A stretch of 64,000 bases of DNA from Escherichia coli (GTDB lineage: Bacteria > Pseudomonadota > Gammaproteobacteria > Enterobacterales > Enterobacteriaceae). Below are positions 1,889 through 21,569 of this stretch, in pieces. The DNA is taken from NCBI RefSeq assembly GCF_036507355.1, contig NZ_AP027877.1. One strand, written 5' to 3'. The position numbers and the translations under genes were made by a program. Position 1 is the stretch's first letter, and every line of letters begins with the position of its first letter. The notes under the pieces were generated by a model. The model saw nothing but the letters and a program-made list of their open reading frames with translations. It did not search any database and was not told where the DNA came from.

Positions 1889-2569
1889 TCACCCACTGTG
1901 GTATATGCGTTGCGGTCTGCCAACTTTGCCGTGAACAATTTCAGCAATAATCAGATGGCGGCTGGCGCAATATTCAAGATAACGCCTGGCAGTGGTGCGG
2001 CTGATGGTCAGTGCCTGCGCCACTGTTTCTGCCGTATGTTGCACACCCGGCTCTTTGAACAGTTTTCGCACCGCGTTTAGCGTCAAAGGGTCAATGCCGG
2101 TCGGCAGTTCGTCTTTGGGTTCACCGCGAGCATAGGCATTAAACATCTCATCAATTTGCTTCTGGCTGGCGCTATCAATACTTTCCAGCATATGTTTACG
2201 CTGGCGGAAACGGGTTAGCGTTTGCCCCAGCCGTTCATAGGCAATTGGCTTAATGAGATAATCAAATACACCACAACGTACGGCTTCAGACACCGTTTCC
2301 ATATCGCTGGCTGCAGTGGTAAACACCACGTCGCCGGGATAATGCGCCTGCACCAGTTCATGCAGTAAATTAATCCCTCTACCGTCAGGAAGATAGTTAT
2401 CGAGCAAGATTAGCCCCGGCTTAAAACGCTCGATCATCATTCGGGCCTGCGCCAGGTTTCCCGCCAGTAATATCTGACTGAATCCGGGAATGTGACGAAT
2501 ATATTCCGCATGCATCTCTGCCAGCGGCGTTTCGTCCTCAACGATCAATAGGGTTAATGGAGCTGTCAT
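1889..2569 (-). CDS. dpiA: Response regulator DpiA (CitB)
   Basis: 226-aa ORF MTAPLTLLIVEDETPLAEMHAEYIRH... with receiver domain; adjacent and overlapping dpiB. Confidence 0.93.
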   Translation of the reverse strand: MTAPLTLLIVEDETPLAEMHAEYIRHIPGFSQILLAGNLAQARMMIERFKPGLILLDNYLPDGRGINLLHELVQAHYPGDVVFTTAASDMETVSEAVRCGVFDYLIKPIAYERLGQTLTRFRQRKHMLESIDSASQKQIDEMFNAYARGEPKDELPTGIDPLTLNAVRKLFKEPGVQHTAETVAQALTISRTTARRYLEYCASRHLIIAEIVHGKVGRPQRIYHSG

Positions 2570-4196
2570 TAGGTTTCACTTTCGGAATATAGATTGAAAA
2601 TAAGGTACCGCAGGGATCATTATCTTCGAGAGTGATAACACCACCGCAGCGCGTTACGTAGCTGGCAATCAAGTACAACCCAATGCCATGTTCACCGGGC
2701 TCGTCAGCACGCGTACTGACCCCCTGCTCAAATATTTTGTCTCGTAGAGACTCTGGAACGCCGCAGCCCTGATCGGCGACTTCAATCACCACATCATCGC
2801 CTTCATCGCTGAGGAATAATTCAACGATCTTGTTTCCTTCATCGCTACGCAGGCTGGCTTCGAAGGCGTTATCAAGTAAATTTCCCACAATGGCGGCAAA
2901 CTCGGTGCTATCCAGTCCTGGCGGCAGTTGCGAAAGCTGGCTACCGGGGACGATGATCATTTTTAGCCCCAGTTCGCGGGCGCGCTGCACTTTACCAAAA
3001 AGCAGCCCCGCCACCTGGCGATCGGCAAACGCCTCGCGCAGGCTGTCAATAAGCTGTTGCTGGGCCTGAGACTCCCCCTGCACCATCGCCAGCACGCGAT
3101 CATACTCTTTCATCTGCAACAGACCATTGAGCGTCGACATCCAATTGAGATGCTCGTGTCGCAATGTACGAAGGCTCTCGACGTATTGTTTTATTTGCGT
3201 CAGTTGCGCATTGAGGGTGGAAATTTCGTCTTTACTACGAAAGCTGATAATGGCCCCCAGCAAATCATCACCTGAACGAATAGCTTCCCGATTGGCAATA
3301 ACGCTCAGACCGTTAAAGTTAGCCACCACATCCTGACGTTTTTCATCAATCTGTTCGGTAAAGAAATCGGCGGGCCTGACCACTTCAGCAATGGGTTTAC
3401 CCAACCATTGCCGTCCGGGGGAACTCAGCCCCAGCATCTTTCTTGCGTTACGATTGATGGCGGTAATGTAACCGTGCGGATCCACCGCAATCAGCCCTTC
3501 ATAAACCGAACTAAACAGCGCCTCTTGCTGACGGACCACGCGTGCGATTTGCTTTGGCTCCATGCCCATCATCTGCCGACGGATATGCGCGGCCAGGAAC
3601 CACGACAGCAACATCAGAATCCCTAACAGCACGACAAACACACCTGCCATCGGTAATAAAAACTCAGCCCGCCAGCTATCGATTTTACTCACCAGGTAGC
3701 CAATCGACACCACGCCGATGACTTTTCCATCGTCATCAAAGATTGGCGTTTTGGCGCGCATCGCCATACCCATTGACCCTTTCCCGGTAATGAAGTAGCT
3801 CTCCCCTTTCTCCAGCGCGCCCTGTTTGGTGAACTGCATAGGATAACCAATTTTCTCCGGATTAGGATGGTAAAGGCGGATCGAGTGCCGGTCGCCAATC
3901 ACCACATAATCAAAATCGGTATCTCTTTGTAATTTGTTAGCGATGGTCGCCAGCCGTTTGTAGTCACGCGTTTTCACCGTAGAGATGACACTGTCATTGG
4001 AGGCAATAATTTTCGCCTGATTCATTGCCATGTCGCGTACATGAAGCGTTAAATAGTCCTCAAAACTGGCCGTAAAATATTGCGCCAGGGCTGCAATGAC
4101 AAATATTGAGAACACCAGAATCAGCAAAAAGATACGCAGCGGAAATGCCAGTCTTTGGAAAAATGCAAACTGTTTATTCTCGTTAAGCTGCAACAT
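2538..4196 (-). CDS. dpiB: Sensor histidine kinase DpiB (CitA)
   Basis: ORF 2538..4256; start trimmed to the internal Met (MLQLNENKQFAFF...) matching the recalled DpiB N-terminus; histidine kinase motifs in the C-terminal half. Confidence 0.9.
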   Translation of the reverse strand: MLQLNENKQFAFFQRLAFPLRIFLLILVFSIFVIAALAQYFTASFEDYLTLHVRDMAMNQAKIIASNDSVISTVKTRDYKRLATIANKLQRDTDFDYVVIGDRHSIRLYHPNPEKIGYPMQFTKQGALEKGESYFITGKGSMGMAMRAKTPIFDDDGKVIGVVSIGYLVSKIDSWRAEFLLPMAGVFVVLLGILMLLSWFLAAHIRRQMMGMEPKQIARVVRQQEALFSSVYEGLIAVDPHGYITAINRNARKMLGLSSPGRQWLGKPIAEVVRPADFFTEQIDEKRQDVVANFNGLSVIANREAIRSGDDLLGAIISFRSKDEISTLNAQLTQIKQYVESLRTLRHEHLNWMSTLNGLLQMKEYDRVLAMVQGESQAQQQLIDSLREAFADRQVAGLLFGKVQRARELGLKMIIVPGSQLSQLPPGLDSTEFAAIVGNLLDNAFEASLRSDEGNKIVELFLSDEGDDVVIEVADQGCGVPESLRDKIFEQGVSTRADEPGEHGIGLYLIASYVTRCGGVITLEDNDPCGTLFSIYIPKVKPNDSSINPIDR

Positions 4197-4256
4197 TGTT
4201 TTCCTTGCGGGTTGTCCCGAGCCTCTTTGACGGATGTAATTAAAATGTTGAATCAA

Positions 4257-4575
4257 AATACATAGATATTAATTATAATCGTGGCAAATTTTATTCATTA
4301 AATCAATTAAATCACTTAAACCTGCGGGTCATTTCGTAATTACATTAATTAAAAAACTTAAAACCATTAAATAAATAAAAAACCACTAACTCTATGTGAA
4401 ATAAATCAAAATTTCACGCCAAAATACTCCTTAGGATGTATAGCGAAAGGAGAAAAAGATATACCTCGATCACCCCCCTTTCTCCCAAGTGAAAATAAAA
4501 GGTTATCAGTTTGCAACATTGAACAACATTCGTTGCAAATCGATAACAACATGCACCTTCAGGATACTATTTATT
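4257..4575. promoter_or_regulatory. AT-rich divergent control region between dpiBA and citCDEFXG
   Basis: About 320 bp of strongly AT-rich DNA between two divergent starts; DpiA-dependent control of citC is established knowledge; exact sites not mapped here. Confidence 0.5.
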
Positions 4576-5634
4576 ATGTTCGGCAATGATATTTTCACCC
4601 GCGTAAAACGTTCAGAAAATAAAAAAATGGCGGAAATCGCCCAATTCCTGCATGAAAATGATTTGAGCGTTGACACCACAGTCGAAGTATTTATTACCGT
4701 AACCCGCGATGAAAAGCTTATCGCGTGCGGTGGAATTGCCGGAAATATTATTAAATGCGTTGCTATCAGTGAATCCGTTCGCGGTGAAGGACTGGCGCTG
4801 ACATTAGCCACTGAACTGATAAACCTCGCCTATGAGCGGCACAGCACGCATCTGTTTATTTATACCAAAACCGAATACGAGGCGCTGTTCCGCCAGTGCG
4901 GTTTTTCCACGTTGACCAGCGTACCAGGCGTGATGGTGCTGATGGAAAACAGCGCCACGCGATTGAAACGCTATGCCGAATCGCTGAAAAAATTTCGTCA
5001 TCCAGGGAACAAGATTGGCTGCATTGTGATGAACGCCAATCCCTTTACGAAGGGTCACCGTTATCTGATTCAACAGGCTGCGGCACAGTGCGACTGGTTG
5101 CATCTGTTTTTAGTCAAAGAAGATTCTTCACGCTTCCCCTATGAAGACCGGCTGGATCTGGTGTTAAAAGGCACCGCCGATATTCCACGCCTGACTGTGC
5201 ATCGCGGCTCCGAATACATCATCTCCCGCGCTACGTTCCCTTGCTACTTCATTAAAGAACAGAGCGTCATTAACCATTGTTACACCGAAATTGATTTGAA
5301 GATTTTCCGTCAGTACCTCGCTCCCGCGCTGGGTGTAACTCACCGCTTTGTCGGTACTGAACCCTTTTGTCGCGTTACCGCCCAGTACAACCAGGATATG
5401 CGCTACTGGCTGGAAACGCCGACTATCTCCGCACCGCCCATCGAACTGGTTGAAATTGAGCGGCTGCGTTACCAGGAGATGCCGATATCCGCTTCCCGGG
5501 TACGTCAACTGCTGGCGAAAAACGATCTCACGGCTATCGCGCCGCTGGTCCCTGCAGTCACGCTGCATTATTTGCAGAACCTGCTTGAGCACTCCCGCCA
5601 GGACGCGGCAGCTCGTCAAAAGACCCCCGCATGA
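4576..5634 (+). CDS. citC: [Citrate (pro-3S)-lyase] ligase CitC
   Basis: ORF 4489..5634 trimmed to MFGNDIFTRVKRSENKK...; first gene of the cit operon. Confidence 0.92.
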   Translation: MFGNDIFTRVKRSENKKMAEIAQFLHENDLSVDTTVEVFITVTRDEKLIACGGIAGNIIKCVAISESVRGEGLALTLATELINLAYERHSTHLFIYTKTEYEALFRQCGFSTLTSVPGVMVLMENSATRLKRYAESLKKFRHPGNKIGCIVMNANPFTKGHRYLIQQAAAQCDWLHLFLVKEDSSRFPYEDRLDLVLKGTADIPRLTVHRGSEYIISRATFPCYFIKEQSVINHCYTEIDLKIFRQYLAPALGVTHRFVGTEPFCRVTAQYNQDMRYWLETPTISAPPIELVEIERLRYQEMPISASRVRQLLAKNDLTAIAPLVPAVTLHYLQNLLEHSRQDAAARQKTPA

Positions 5635-17371: not shown

Positions 17372-17742
17372 CTATACTTCCTCCGTGTTTTCGATGAGAT
17401 GTAAGGTAACCAATTTTTGCCGATTCGGCTAATGCGTTTCCATTATCAAATCGATAAGTTTTACCTTACAACCTTCGTAAGACAACTTTGTGAACTTTGC
17501 ACCGCCAGCGGCGATAAAAAGTAAAATGGCCCCCTTTCCAGGTGACCGTGTAATCTGAACTACCCTTTGGTATCTTCAGCGCCTGCCTGCAGGCAGAGGT
17601 GTTGCCCTTACAAATGCAACAACGACATGGATTACAACACCCTCATAAACAAAGGGCAATCACCTGATCTAAGCTCTTACCTATGACAGTGATAGGTTAT
17701 GCCTTTTACTCGACTTTTGCACTGACTGAAAAGGACAAATTA
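17372..17742. promoter_or_regulatory. Divergent ahpC / dsbG promoter region (OxyR-controlled ahpC promoter expected here)
   Basis: 370-bp gap between divergent starts; OxyR regulation of ahpCF is established knowledge; site not mapped from sequence. Confidence 0.45.
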
Positions 17743-18489
17743 ATGTTAAAAAAGATACTTTTACTGGCTCTGCTTCCTGCAATCGCCTTCGCAGAGGAAC
17801 TTCCTGCTCCAGTAAAAGCGATTGAAAAACAGGGTATTACGATCATCAAAACGTTCGATGCCCCCGGAGGAATGAAAGGTTATCTCGGAAAGTATCAGGA
17901 TATGGGCGTCACCATCTACCTGACTCCAGATGGTAAGCACGCTATCTCTGGTTACATGTACAACGAGAAAGGTGAAAACCTGAGTAACACACTTATCGAA
18001 AAAGAAATTTACGCACCAGCCGGACGCGAAATGTGGCAACGGATGGAACAATCCCACTGGCTCCTCGACGGTAAAAAAGACGCGCCGGTCATTGTCTACG
18101 TCTTCGCCGATCCGTTCTGCCCATATTGTAAACAGTTCTGGCAGCAGGCGCGCCCGTGGGTAGATTCTGGCAAAGTACAGTTGAGAACATTGTTGGTTGG
18201 GGTTATCAAACCAGAAAGTCCGGCGACAGCCGCGGCAATTCTTGCCTCCAAAGATCCCGCAAAAACCTGGCAAGAATATGAAGCCTCTGGTGGCAAGCTT
18301 AAGCTAAACGTGCCTGCAAACGTAAGTACAGAGCAAATGAAAGTGTTAAGCGACAACGAGAAACTCATGGACGATCTGGGGGCAAATGTCACTCCGGCTA
18401 TCTATTACATGAGTAAGGAAAATACGCTGCAACAGGCCGTGGGGTTGCCCGATCAGAAAACGCTTAATATCATTATGGGAAATAAATAA
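17743..18489 (+). CDS. dsbG: Periplasmic disulfide isomerase DsbG
   Basis: ORF 17683..18489 trimmed to [17 protein letters not shown] (signal peptide); CPYC active site present. Confidence 0.9.
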
Positions 18490-18697
18490 AAGGTAATTCA
18501 TGGATGGTTGAACTATATCCCTGCTTTTCAACCATCCTAAAAAAGCATGAATTGCTCGCTCTGCCCTAAGTGGCTGTGCTATTTTAGAAAAACTTAATCC
18601 TGAGTTAAGCAAAAAAACATAATCAATAAAAATATATACGCAAAAAACATTGATTAAGTGAATATATCATGGAAGAAAAATATAACCGGAGTAGTGT

Positions 18698-19600
18698 ATG
18701 ACCAATCTCTACGACTTGAAAAAGTTCGACTTAAATCTTCTTGTCATATTTGAGTGTATTTACCAGCATTTAAGCATTAGCAAAGCTGCTGAATCACTAT
18801 ATATCACCCCATCAGCCGTGAGCCAGTCGTTACAACGCTTACGTGCGCAATTTAATGACCCTTTATTCATTCGCTCAGGAAAAGGTATCGCGCCGACGAC
18901 AACAGGGTTAAATCTGCATCACCATCTTGAGAAAAATCTCAGAGGCCTTGAACAAACAATTAATATAGTCAATAAGTCCGAACTAAAGAAAAACTTTATT
19001 ATTCACGGCCCTCAGCTCATTTCTTGCTCTAATAATAGTATGCTGATCCGCTGCCTACGGCAAGATTCCTCTGTCGAGATTGAGTGCCATGATATCCTCA
19101 TGTCAGCAGAGAATGCTGAAGAACTGTTGGTTCACCGCAAAGCCGATCTGGTGATCACCCAAATGCCAGTGATCAGCCGTTCCGTCATTTGCATGCCATT
19201 GCATACGATTCGCAATACTCTAATTTGTAGTAATAGGCATCCACGAATTACTGACAATAGCACTTATGAACAAATTATGGCAGAAGAGTTCACCCAATTA
19301 ATATCTAAATCAGCAGGGGTTGATGATATTCAAATGGAAATAGACGAGAGATTTATGAATCGCAAAATTTCATTTCGTGGTTCCTCTTTGCTGACAATCA
19401 TTAATAGCATTGCAGTTACAGATTTACTGGGAATAGTCCCCTATGAACTTTATAACTCCCACCGTGACTTTCTTAATTTAAAAGAGATAAAACTAGAACA
19501 TCCGTTACCTTCAATAAAGCTTTACATTTCCTATAATAAATCTTCTTTAAACAATCTGGTGTTCTCCCGATTTATTGACCGTCTAAATGAGTGTTTTTGA
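18698..19600 (+). CDS. ybdO: LysR-family transcriptional regulator YbdO
   Basis: 300-aa ORF with N-terminal helix-turn-helix (ISKAAESLYITPSAVSQSLQRLR); coding sequence markedly AT-rich by eye. Confidence 0.9.
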   Translation: MTNLYDLKKFDLNLLVIFECIYQHLSISKAAESLYITPSAVSQSLQRLRAQFNDPLFIRSGKGIAPTTTGLNLHHHLEKNLRGLEQTINIVNKSELKKNFIIHGPQLISCSNNSMLIRCLRQDSSVEIECHDILMSAENAEELLVHRKADLVITQMPVISRSVICMPLHTIRNTLICSNRHPRITDNSTYEQIMAEEFTQLISKSAGVDDIQMEIDERFMNRKISFRGSSLLTIINSIAVTDLLGIVPYELYNSHRDFLNLKEIKLEHPLPSIKLYISYNKSSLNNLVFSRFIDRLNECF

Positions 19601-19746
19601 TATATAACTTCAGACAGCTACTATAACTTTCACCTATTTATTCACAGCGCGAATGAAAAATAAAACACTCTGCTTTTCAGTGTTTACTTTATAATTAACA
19701 GTCTTATCTCACTGATCACCCTGTAACGTTCAGAGAGCGTCTTCAG

Positions 19747-20967
19747 ATGTCTATTTATAAAATTCCTCTTCCGCTCAATATTCTGGAAGCTGCACGAGAG
19801 CGTATTACCTGGACACTCAACACCCTACCCCGCGTTTGTGTCTCATTTTCTGGCGGCAAAGACTCTGGTTTAATGCTGCATCTGACAGCCGAACTTGCCC
19901 GACAAATGGGCAAAAAAATCTGCGTTTTGTTTATCGACTGGGAGGCGCAATTCTCTTGCACCATTAACTATGTTCAGTCCCTGCGCGAGTTGTACACCGA
20001 TGTCATCGAAGAGTTTTACTGGGTTGCGCTCCCGCTTACGACGCAAAATTCCCTTTCACAATACCAACCCGAATGGCAGTGCTGGGAACCTGATGTCGAA
20101 TGGGTGCGTCAGCCCCCGCAAGATGCGATAACCGATCCTGACTTTTTCTGCTTTTACCAGCCAGGCATGACCTTCGAACAATTTGTACGTGAGTTTGCCG
20201 AATGGTTTTCACAAAAACGTCCGGCGGCGATGATGATCGGCATCCGTGCGGATGAGTCCTACAACCGTTTTGTCGCCATCGCCAGTTTAAATAAACAACG
20301 TTTTGCCGACGATAAACCCTGGACTACGGCCGCACCAGGCGGTCATAGCTGGTACATTTACCCCATTTACGACTGGAAAGTGGCTGATATCTGGACCTGG
20401 TATGCAAATCATCAAAGTCTCTGCAACCCACTGTATAACCTAATGTATCAGGCAGGCGTTCCTCTGCGTCATATGCGAATTTGCGAACCTTTTGGCCCGG
20501 AGCAACGACAAGGATTATGGCTCTATCACGTTATCGAACCGGATCGCTGGGCTGCTATGTGCGCACGAGTCAGCGGGGTAAAAAGTGGCGGCATTTACGC
20601 CGGACATGACAATCATTTCTATGGGCATCGGAAAATCCTCAAGCCAGAACATTTAGACTGGCAAGAATATGCATTATTGCTGCTCAATAGCATGCCAGAA
20701 AAAACAGCTGAGCATTACCGCAATAAAATCGCCATTTATTTGCACTGGTATCAGAAAAAAGGCATCGAGGTTCCACAAACCCAGCAAGGGGACATTGGCG
20801 CGAAAGATATCCCTTCCTGGCGGCGGATATGCAAAGTTTTACTCAATAACGATTACTGGTGTCGGGCATTATCATTTAGTCCTACGAAAGCGAAGAACTA
20901 TCAGCGTTATAACGAACGGATAAAAGGAAAACGTCAGGAATGGGGGATACTATGCAACAACGATTAA
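19747..20967 (+). CDS. ybdN: PP-loop ATPase, PAPS reductase-like domain protein YbdN (IbrA-like)
   Basis: 406-aa ORF with the PP-loop motif SFSGGKDS near the N-terminus. Confidence 0.88.
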   Translation: MSIYKIPLPLNILEAARERITWTLNTLPRVCVSFSGGKDSGLMLHLTAELARQMGKKICVLFIDWEAQFSCTINYVQSLRELYTDVIEEFYWVALPLTTQNSLSQYQPEWQCWEPDVEWVRQPPQDAITDPDFFCFYQPGMTFEQFVREFAEWFSQKRPAAMMIGIRADESYNRFVAIASLNKQRFADDKPWTTAAPGGHSWYIYPIYDWKVADIWTWYANHQSLCNPLYNLMYQAGVPLRHMRICEPFGPEQRQGLWLYHVIEPDRWAAMCARVSGVKSGGIYAGHDNHFYGHRKILKPEHLDWQEYALLLLNSMPEKTAEHYRNKIAIYLHWYQKKGIEVPQTQQGDIGAKDIPSWRRICKVLLNNDYWCRALSFSPTKAKNYQRYNERIKGKRQEWGILCNND

Positions 20968-21569
20968 CGCAGGATTTAACGCAATTTCTCGCCAGCTTGC
21001 CGGAAGATGATCGCATCAACGCGATTAATGAAATCCGCATGGCGATCCATCAGGTTAGCCCCTTTCGTGAAGAGCCAGTGGATTGCGTTCTGTGGGTTAA
21101 AAACAGCCAACTTATGCCTAATGATTACAACCCAAACAACGTGGCACCACCCGAAAAAAAACTGCTGAAAAAATCCATTGAAATAGATGGTTTTACCCAA
21201 CCCATTGTGGTCACGCATACGGATAAAAATGCCCTGGAAATCGTGGATGGTTTTCACCGCCATGAAATTGGTAAAGGCTCATCATTATTACAATTACGCT
21301 TAAAAGGTTATTTGCCGGTGACCTGTCTGGAAGGTACGCGTAATCAACGCATCGCCGCGACTATTCGTCATAATCGCGCTCGTGGACGCCATCAAATCAC
21401 CGCCATGTCGGAAATCGTCCGTGAACTTAGCCAGTTGGGATGGGACGATAATAAAATTGGCAAAGAGCTGGGAATGGACAGCGACGAAGTGCTGCGCCTG
21501 AAGCAAATTAACGGCCTGCAAGAGTTGTTTGCCGACCGTCAATATTCCCGCGCCTGGACGGTTAAATAG
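20940..21569 (+). CDS. ybdM: ParB/Srx-like domain protein YbdM (IbrB-like)
   Basis: 209-aa ORF overlapping ybdN by 28 nt; contains DGFHRH and an arginine-rich RHNRARGRH segment typical of ParB N-terminal/sulfiredoxin folds. Confidence 0.85.
   Translation: MGDTMQQRLTQDLTQFLASLPEDDRINAINEIRMAIHQVSPFREEPVDCVLWVKNSQLMPNDYNPNNVAPPEKKLLKKSIEIDGFTQPIVVTHTDKNALEIVDGFHRHEIGKGSSLLQLRLKGYLPVTCLEGTRNQRIAATIRHNRARGRHQITAMSEIVRELSQLGWDDNKIGKELGMDSDEVLRLKQINGLQELFADRQYSRAWTVK

Follow-up and report, generated by a model that had tools for sequence, protein, structure and literature searches.

In a stretch of 64,000 nucleotides (nt) of Escherichia coli DNA (contig NZ_AP027877.1 of assembly GCF_036507355.1; hereafter the window), three consecutive genes on the plus strand, citR (ybdO; 18698..19600, 300 residues), ybdN (19747..20967, 406 residues) and ybdM (20940..21569, 209 residues), are best explained as a chromosomal copy of the IbrA/IbrB gene pair which is equipped with a dedicated repressor and fixed across the sampled genera of Enterobacteriaceae. 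The best model for the activity of the encoded pair, YbdNM, is a ParB-guided, ATP-dependent action on DNA that becomes visible as gene activation, and we assign to it a probability of roughly 0.4. A first-pass annotation, made from the nucleotide sequence, had described the locus as a LysR regulator followed by a PP-loop protein and a ParB/sulfiredoxin (Srx)-like protein, and the corresponding open reading frames (ORFs) are all present on the plus strand. Databases and papers already describe the locus, with its gene names, its regulator and its homology to IbrAB; what remains of interest is that the biochemistry of a core pair of E. coli genes is unsolved, and that relatives of the pair provide leads. 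In fact, a literature search found no activity reported for YbdN or YbdM, in accordance with the earlier statement that no biochemical function had been described for them.

YbdN, the IbrA-family member, is composed of an N-terminal PP-loop domain of the phosphoadenosine phosphosulfate (PAPS) reductase type (Pfam PAPS_reduct, PF01507; residues 30-234, nt 19834-20448; 1.2e-13) and an all-helical C-terminal DUF3440 (residues 237-383, nt 20455-20895; 5e-23), and it also matches Pfam ATP_bind_3 (8e-4) and, over its full length, phrog_2302 (1.4e-76). The PP-loop motif SFSGGKDS, an ATP pyrophosphatase signature, is read at residues 33-40 (19843..19866), where the first-pass annotation had seen it. 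In a family alignment of 59 sequences, reaching down to 27% identity, G37, K38 and S40 of this motif are invariant, as are D64, E66, W113, W119, S171, D214 and Y230, and S35, G36 and D39 are conserved in at least 90% of the sequences. The family is large, with 1685 relatives among 1.84 billion representative proteins, 218 of them below 1e-30. A sequence search of the PDB with YbdN returned no informative relative; the AlphaFold model is confident, with a predicted local distance difference test (pLDDT) of 92.3, and together with the profile searches it upholds the placement of YbdN in the PP-loop superfamily, with the predicted fold of PAPS reductase, FAD synthase and CysD and an intact ATP-binding loop. 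An intact PP-loop, within a fold whose best-known enzymes produce or consume anhydrides of AMP with phosphate or sulfate, suggests that YbdN may perform an adenylyl transfer.

The possibility that YbdN is a real PAPS reductase, CysD or DndC was considered and rejected, as its scores lie 5- to 13-fold under the curated cut-offs (34.8 bits against 254.2 for TIGR02057 and 34.0 against 154 for NF002537, both models of CysH; 24.8 against 195 for CysD; 22.2 against 290.4 for the DndC model TIGR03183), and no cysteine column is invariant or at least 90% conserved among the 59 sequences. Because of these low family scores and of the lack of a conserved catalytic cysteine, the RefSeq product name 'phosphoadenosine phosphosulfate reductase' does not appear justified for this protein. 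Compared with CysH, with the small subunit of ATP sulfurylase (CysD) and with the PAPS domain of FAD synthase, YbdN is without the C-terminal catalytic cysteine of CysH, it carries in addition a W-rich insert (at about residues 94-140) and DUF3440, and both its partner and its genomic setting are unrelated to sulfur assimilation.

The second protein of the pair, YbdM, is predicted to start with a helical hairpin (residues 1-39), which is followed by a ParB/Srx-type nucleotide-binding domain (about residues 46-130, nt 21075-21329) and by a C-terminal helix-turn-helix (about residues 153-196, nt 21396-21527). The motif DGFHRH and the arginine-rich segment pointed out by the first-pass annotation are present, the former at residues 103-108 (DGFHR, residues 103-107, at 21246..21260) and the latter as IRHNRARGRH at residues 142-151. 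D103, G104, H106, R107, R143, N145 and H151 do not vary among 50 aligned homologues, at least 90% of these keep F105, and the motifs N-D-Y-N-P-N-x-V-A-P-P-E, D-G-Y-T-Q-P-I-V, V-D-G-F-H-R and I-R-H-N-R-A-R-G-x-H are unusually rigid. YbdM matches PHROG 2159, 'ParB-like partition protein', over nearly its entire length (1.9e-68), and Pfam ParB_N marginally (2e-4); a sequence search of the PDB gave marginal matches only, such as Noc. When the family profile is compared with PDB sequences, 'NdYNPNsV' pairs with Box I of ParB, 'NPYQPRKV', and 'vvDGfHR' pairs with Box II, 'liAGERR', of ParB and Noc. Because DGFHR aligns with Box II, G104 and R107 are, on the evidence of this alignment, the retained GxxR phosphate-binding motif, and HNRAR may be the counterpart of Box III, 'ENLQR'. 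In the structure model (pLDDT 88.6) the last three helices resemble the helix-turn-helix domains of sigma region 4, of LuxR-type proteins and of ParB/KorB. Profiles and model together uphold the assignment of YbdM to the ParB/Srx superfamily, with a predicted ParB N-domain fold and, after it, a predicted DNA-binding helix-turn-helix.

Two more specific identities of YbdM were tried and rejected. A partition ParB is not supported by the score against the model TIGR00180 (parB_part; 15.9 bits, cut-off 58.45), by the lack of a C-terminal dimerisation domain in a protein that ends at residue 209, or by its surroundings, which contain no adjacent parA and no conserved palindrome. In sulfiredoxin, the catalytic cysteine lies in a GGCHR motif. 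A sulfiredoxin that repairs AhpC was rejected, as the position of that cysteine is taken in YbdM by the conserved phenylalanine F105 and the phage and plasmid copies have no ahpC neighbour. The same observations bear on a role of the locus in sulfur or redox metabolism, in which YbdN would be a PAPS or adenosine phosphosulfate (APS) reductase or a sulfurylase-type assimilation enzyme, or YbdM a sulfiredoxin for AhpC. Such a role would be in line with the RefSeq name of YbdN, with the adjacency of ahpCF and dsbG in E. coli, Salmonella, Citrobacter and Klebsiella (and of ahpCF in Enterobacter), with a 2- to 7-fold increase of the cys regulon in a citR deletion (PMC9068703), and with a study in avian pathogenic E. 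coli which, by its title, connects YbdO with oxidative stress. It is nevertheless contradicted by the CysH and CysD scores, by the lack of an invariant cysteine in YbdN, by F105 and by the phage and plasmid pairs, which have neither ahpC nor cys genes as neighbors, and we find it hardly credible.

The genes ybdN and ybdM overlap on the plus strand by 28 nt (20940..20967) when the annotated ATG of ybdM is used, which is the length given by the first-pass annotation. A second in-frame ATG of ybdM is found at 20952, with GGGGGA just 5' of it, and the start of the orthologues in Citrobacter, Klebsiella and Enterobacter corresponds to this second ATG, so that a conserved overlap of 16 nt rather than 28 nt appears more likely. 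Translational coupling of the two genes, also proposed before, is plausible whichever start is used. A 16-nt overlap is common to YbdNM and to plasmid paralogues about 58% identical to YbdN, and it is one of several likenesses to IbrA/IbrB of ECOR-9, in which a protein made of PAPS_reduct and DUF3440 is likewise followed by an overlapping gene for a ParB-like protein. The IbrB-type motifs NxYNPN, DGFHR and RHNRARG are present in YbdM, whose gene is adjacent to ybdN, on the same strand and overlapping with it. The resemblance to IbrA/IbrB noticed by the first-pass annotation is therefore real: RefSeq names YbdM an 'IbrB-like domain-containing protein', homologues are labelled 'IbrA family prophage gene co-activator', and the family names are used both by RefSeq and by phage annotators, whose records call the homologous pair IbrA/IbrB. 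The two systems differ in their setting: YbdNM is encoded by the core chromosome, in synteny and next to a LysR repressor of its own, and IbrAB by a prophage-like island or by plasmids. In ECOR-9 ibrA and ibrB, which overlap, reportedly activate jointly the eib genes of prophages (work by Sandt and colleagues in 2002). The eib products are YadA-like immunoglobulin-binding adhesins, and their activation is known for IbrAB only, not for YbdNM.

Relatives of the pair are also found in viruses, with a YbdN relative in 224 of the phage records searched. We examined 83 viral loci, 80 of them retrieved from IMG/VR with the family alignment and three from phage records. In most of these an IbrB homologue lies beside IbrA on the same strand; gene calls recovered 70 pairs, 37 in the order B-to-A and 33 in the order A-to-B, and many of the stop/start junctions overlap, by 4 to 35 nt. 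Since IbrA and IbrB are paired in most loci, in either order and often overlapping, the arrangement bears the signature of an obligate linkage and points to two proteins acting as one unit. The pair, annotated as IbrA/IbrB, is located between the lysin and the early genes in Streptococcus phage CHPC1230 and in Lactobacillus phage AQ113, and Arthrobacter phage Laroye has the gene order ParB, PAPS-reductase, ParB, methyltransferase and terminase; further phage neighbors encode RecE-like exonuclease, NinG/Rap and replication proteins of the DnaD/O type.

The viral loci contain additional partners. An unnamed family of about 125 residues, which we call X (consensus hPY..WE.Y..G(F/M)Y ... WKYSCEHNLTN...NRIAWLGQAACC), occurs in 56 of the 83 loci (among L004-L083), as a free ORF directly 5' of IbrA (e.g. 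L024:2378-2791) or, in 20 loci, fused to the C-terminus of an IbrB of about 380 residues (e.g. L046:4233-5369, residues 239-361). X has no match in Pfam, PHROG or the PDB, and its 734 database relatives are unannotated, apart from odd labels in a small number of source records, e.g. 'protoheme ferro-lyase'. A helicase of the superfamily 2 (SF2)/SNF2-like type (phrog_62; Pfam Helicase_C and SNF2-rel) adjoins IbrA in 12 loci, including that of phage AQ113, and a Gcn5-related N-acetyltransferase (GNAT) domain is found in 10, either in a small ORF adjoining IbrA or fused to the helicase (examples of helicase and GNAT genes are L065:6236-8026, L068:6208-7980, L069:6218-8014, L009:9179-9604 and L002:4824-6002); in the IbrA homologue P0298 a GNAT domain is fused to the C-terminus. 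A fourth small family stands directly 5' of IbrA in four loci and bears a likeness, by eye, to the N-terminal extension of the IbrA homologue P0243. X is not encoded anywhere within the 64-kb window, and X, helicase and GNAT domain are all lacking alongside E. coli ybdNM. The association in phages of a helicase, an acyltransferase, a PP-loop enzyme and a ParB-like binder suggests that several enzymes work together as a system on nucleic acid, in the simplest case on DNA.

An action on RNA would require that YbdN adenylylates a base of tRNA or rRNA in the manner of TilS, TtcA and TtuA, with YbdM as a specificity or regulatory subunit and with the effects on expression arising in translation. 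A weak match of YbdN to the NCBIfam TilS N-domain (9e-5) would agree with such an activity, and the fusion of helicase and GNAT recalls the tRNA cytidine acetyltransferase TmcA. However, the closest folds of YbdN are those of PAPS reductase, FAD synthase and CysD, not of tRNA enzymes, cysteine motifs for an Fe-S cluster or zinc are missing from it, its partner is a ParB-type protein with a helix-turn-helix of the DNA type, and the phage neighbors are genes for DNA replication, recombination and packaging. We consider RNA or tRNA modification quite improbable, and the chemistry of YbdNM is probably directed at DNA.

The abundance of the pair on phages, prophages and plasmids, together with the moron slot that it occupies between lysis and early genes in the Streptococcus and Lactobacillus phages, might also be expected from a module of genetic conflict, serving phage defence or anti-defence or resembling a toxin-antitoxin pair, that is silenced in the host and costly or protective if expressed. 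The TASmania resource in fact guesses a toxin-antitoxin pair for Listeria lmo1309/lmo1310, over-expression of YbdM costs 10% of the growth rate (PMC8764527), and a DNA modification, as in the model preferred here, would naturally act as anti-restriction in phages. Nevertheless, the TASmania call is one of guilt by association only, the E. coli copy is located amid housekeeping genes and outside any defence island, and, in contrast to typical defence cargo, it belongs to the core genome and keeps its synteny from genus to genus. Furthermore, a known defence system was sought in PADLOC-DB v2 and rejected, as the database gives weak partial matches only (DndC 2e-5, BrxP 1e-4, MTase_II 7e-4), none of them at the level of a system. 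A conflict module is thus improbable in our view, and both this reading and that of RNA modification are weaker than the transcriptional one considered below, as is the sulfur or redox role.

Within E. coli the family is not restricted to the chromosomal locus. A blastn search gave 7902 places in 5420 E. coli genomes, which amounts to about 2500 extra copies. An IbrA relative about 58% identical to YbdN is present on 855 plasmids of PLSDB, among them 323 from Klebsiella, 204 from Escherichia, 129 from Ralstonia and 123 from Shigella (the Shigella rows examined are short fragments). Surface or virulence cargo was found beside the plasmid IbrAB paralogues in each of the four contexts opened: on the E. 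coli IncF plasmid p100 (L087) the neighbors are a serine protease autotransporter of Enterobacteriaceae (SPATE), a YadA-like adhesin and an OmpA-family protein; on a conjugative plasmid of Klebsiella pneumoniae (L088) they are fecI/fecA and iroBCDN; in the third context (L089) the HyxB autotransporter, a SPATE and fimbrial genes; and in the fourth (L090), from Salmonella, an inverse autotransporter/invasin and a type IV pilus cluster. Such adhesin and virulence neighbors fit the activation of eib by IbrAB.

The same neighborhoods are what could be expected from a pure transcription switch in which no chemistry is performed on nucleic acid, and this is the main rival to DNA modification. YbdM would then be a nucleotide-gated clamp or anti-silencer similar to KorB or VirB, which displaces H-NS, and YbdN would regulate YbdM, for instance through adenylylation of YbdM itself or of a small ligand, or as a source or consumer of the nucleotide. 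Gene activation is the sole phenotype known for the family, the plasmid paralogues flank virulence cargo that is a typical target of H-NS, the locus itself is bound by H-NS (PMC4720273), and E. coli has two genes only, with no helper enzymes. A switch of this kind would, however, leave unexplained why a complete and conserved PP-loop site and a large DUF3440 are kept under strong purifying selection, why helicase and GNAT are adjacent or fused in phages, and why the pair is placed in the DNA-metabolism and packaging modules of virulent-type phages. We hold it to be doubtful as a full account of YbdNM.

The model of DNA modification is made reasonable by three precedents, the DndB/DndC pair, DpdB and a ParB-dependent phage thymine dioxygenase. 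DndB (ParB-like) and DndC (PAPS-reductase-like) act together in DNA phosphorothioation, and DndB/DndC, as well as SspD and BrxP, show the same combination as YbdNM, namely a ParB-superfamily protein with a DGxHR-type motif and a PAPS-reductase-like PP-loop ATPase, the Dnd pair acting on DNA. On the other hand, YbdN has neither the cysteine dyad nor the Fe-S ligands of DndC, DUF3440 is specific to IbrA, and DndA, DndD and DndE partners are missing, the neighbors being citR, ybdL, dsbG and ahpCF. DpdB is a ParB-like ATPase needed for the insertion of deazaguanine. For the phage thymine dioxygenase 5mYOX176 the cognate ParB176 is obligate, specifically on double-stranded DNA (2026 study, PMC13229309); here too a ParB-like protein is paired with an enzyme, although this is an Fe/2-oxoglutarate dioxygenase whereas YbdN is a PP-loop ATPase, and the associated ParBs keep the C-terminal dimerisation domain and are without a DNA-binding domain, the reverse of YbdM. 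With the cytidine triphosphate (CTP) switches ParB, KorB, Noc and VirB, YbdM shares an N-terminal nucleotide-binding fold followed by a helix-turn-helix, as well as Boxes I and II and the GxxR motif, but it lacks their C-terminal dimerisation domain and a ParA or KorA partner, its partner being an enzyme, and the glutamate of Box III is apparently a histidine.

Published work shows that CitR and H-NS keep the locus nearly silent and that the expression of ybdNM rises upon deletion of citR. Based on the above precedents and on the features of both proteins, we hypothesize that YbdM, once produced, would bind DNA through its helix-turn-helix. A nucleotide at the GxxR/HNRAR site may perhaps gate the recruitment or the activation of YbdN on double-stranded DNA, and YbdN would then spend ATP, with release of AMP and pyrophosphate, to adenylylate and thus chemically alter a group on the nucleic acid. 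In the phage relatives X, the SF2 helicase (by unwinding) and GNAT (by acyl transfer) would complete the reaction. The read-out in the cell would be the activation, probably by counter-silencing, of AT-rich horizontally acquired genes, comparable to the effect of IbrAB on eib.

Several points weigh against this mechanism. A modified nucleotide, an ATPase activity or binding to DNA has been reported for no member of the family. Because YbdN is without an invariant cysteine and no cysteine desulfurase or other donor gene is linked to it, the sulfur insertion of DndC/SspD is inapplicable and the chemistry proposed here is without precedent. The minimal E. coli pair, devoid of X, helicase and GNAT, may have a more limited activity than its phage counterparts, or another one. 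Neither a cross-genus alignment nor a search for inverted repeats identified a conserved operator or a parS-like site for YbdM near the locus. Mutations of nucleotide-binding residues had little effect in the ParB-dependent dioxygenase (PMC13229309), for which reason a nucleotide gating of YbdM is not assured. Finally, the evidence for eib activation comes from the paralogue IbrAB and not from YbdNM. A wider form of the model, according to which IbrA/IbrB, including YbdN/YbdM, would constitute an unrecognised class of ParB-guided PP-loop systems for nucleic-acid modification, other than phosphorothioation, completed in phages by X, helicase and GNAT, serving as an epigenetic switch for H-NS-silenced surface and virulence genes and present as a CitR/H-NS-gated copy in nearly every E. 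coli, is tentative and, taken as a whole, rather unlikely.

The regulator of the locus is better characterized. YbdO is a LysR-type protein, as stated by the first-pass annotation, which has to be corrected insofar as the gene has already been named citR and its product is a known repressor of ybdNM (Rodionova et al. 2022, PMC9068703); in accordance with that assignment YbdO scores 458.7 bits against the CitR equivalog NF047710 of NCBIfam (cut-off 400), the match covering 1-294 of the 295 profile positions. Deletion of citR raises ybdN by log2 5.5 and ybdM by log2 2.5, and a CitR peak was detected 5' of citR by chromatin immunoprecipitation with exonuclease (ChIP-exo) (PMC9068703). The same deletion increases the expression of the entire cys regulon (cysDNC, cysJI, cysAWU) by log2 2-2.8 (PMC9068703 Table 1). 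Silencing of ybdO by H-NS, suspected in the first-pass annotation, has been published: H-NS binds and represses the gene, with elements both upstream and downstream (Higashi et al. 2016, PMC4720273), acid pH relieves this repression, and YbdO activates the K1 capsule genes (Fan et al. 2022, PMC9141747). The level of YbdM protein was found to be 29-fold higher in cells with a blaCTX-M-15 plasmid (PMC8764527).

The citR promoter and the region bound by H-NS lie in the dsbG-citR intergenic segment (18490..18697, 32% GC). Transcription of ybdO starts 107 bp 5' of the ATG (PMC4720273), which would place the start at about 18591, six bases past a TATTTT at 18580-18585. The citR-ybdN intergenic segment (19601..19746, 35% GC) contains a perfect TATAAT at 19690-19695, which is kept by both E. 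coli alleles described below, an 18-nt imperfect inverted repeat at 19652-19696, and a T-N11-A dyad like those of LysR-type transcriptional regulators, ATTCAC-N3-GCGAAT, at 19640-19654; these are candidate elements of a ybdN promoter and operator only. Scans of the locus for promoter consensus sequences and terminators gave no excess of sites over shuffled sequence, and an Rfam scan had no match within citR-ybdN-ybdM. A conserved operator or parS-like site in this spacer was considered and rejected, as the repeat at 19652-19696 is absent from the second allele and the spacer is poorly conserved between genera (55% mean identity).

The first-pass annotation had also described ybdO as AT-rich relative to its flanks and had suggested a horizontal acquisition. 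The base composition is as described, with 38.8% GC in citR (39.5% at third codon positions, GC3) against 52.4% in the window, about 47% in ybdN and ybdM and 54-55% in ybdL and hcxA; across the whole window just 1.1% of segments of 903 nt are equally AT-rich. Of 5426 complete E. coli genomes, 5422 contain the 3-kb locus, as a single copy at this position, and the order ahpCF-dsbG-LysR-ybdN-ybdM-ybdL is common to E. coli, Salmonella, Citrobacter and Klebsiella; Enterobacter has the same gene order, with no dsbG seen. Because this order recurs across enterobacterial genera, comparative genomics argues that citR-ybdN-ybdM has been inherited vertically, has long belonged to the enterobacterial chromosome and was not imported recently, and a horizontal acquisition of citR, if there was any, can only be ancient. 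The three proteins are, judging by the ratios of nonsynonymous to synonymous substitution (dN/dS) between two E. coli alleles (0.035 for citR, 0.043 for ybdN and 0.097 for ybdM), all under purifying selection. CitR is by far the fastest-evolving of them, with 47-56% amino-acid identity between E. coli and four other genera, compared with 73-85% for YbdN, 65-78% for YbdM and 84-86% for YbdL.

Two classes of alleles are found in E. coli, 3633 genomes being at least 95% identical to the window and 1773 being 80-90% identical. The citR alleles share 79.7% of their nucleotides and 87.7% of their amino acids, with a synonymous divergence (dS) of about 2. In a sliding comparison the divergence is sharply confined to about 18450-19950, comprising citR with its promoter, the citR-ybdN spacer and about 200 nt at the 5' end of ybdN, where bins of 200 nt are 74-91% identical; on both sides of this span, ybdM and the greater part of ybdN included, identity is 95-99%. 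The dimorphism could be due to introgression or to a polymorphism of long standing. A high substitution rate of ybdO was noted by Higashi et al. in 2016, apparently without the dimorphism (PMC4720273).

Over 15-24 kb of the window the gene order is ahpF (-), ahpC (-), dsbG (+), citR, ybdN and ybdM (all +), ybdL (-) and hcxA (+). The ORF of dsbG, as called mechanically, begins 60 nt (20 codons; 17683-17742) 5' of the start used by its RefSeq relatives (747 nt, 248 residues), the extra part being probably due to a mere upstream in-frame start codon. In the ahpC-dsbG intergenic region an Rfam model of the small RNA STnc70 matches 17516-17609 on the minus strand (45.3 bits, gathering score 40). 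About 13 kb from citR, dpiB (citA; 2538-4256, minus strand) and citC (4489-5634, plus strand), citrate-lyase genes which CitR reportedly influences, diverge across a second AT-rich segment, in which windows of 903 nt fall to 38% GC.

YbdN and YbdM are encoded by core genes of E. coli K-12. The significance of the pair extends beyond E. coli, as the YbdN/YbdM family is spread over phages, prophages and the large virulence plasmids of Klebsiella, E. coli, Salmonella and Shigella. The comparative data single out X, the helicase and GNAT as partners and the YadA/Eib-like and iro genes beside the paralogues as candidate targets, and K38 and D39 in YbdN and R107 and N145 in YbdM as candidate catalytic residues. 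If an adenylylation of DNA by YbdN were true, it would represent a new type of reaction for the PP-loop superfamily. If DNA modification or counter-silencing by YbdNM and its relatives is true, these proteins would add a regulatory layer to the expression of adhesins, autotransporters, siderophores and perhaps capsule.

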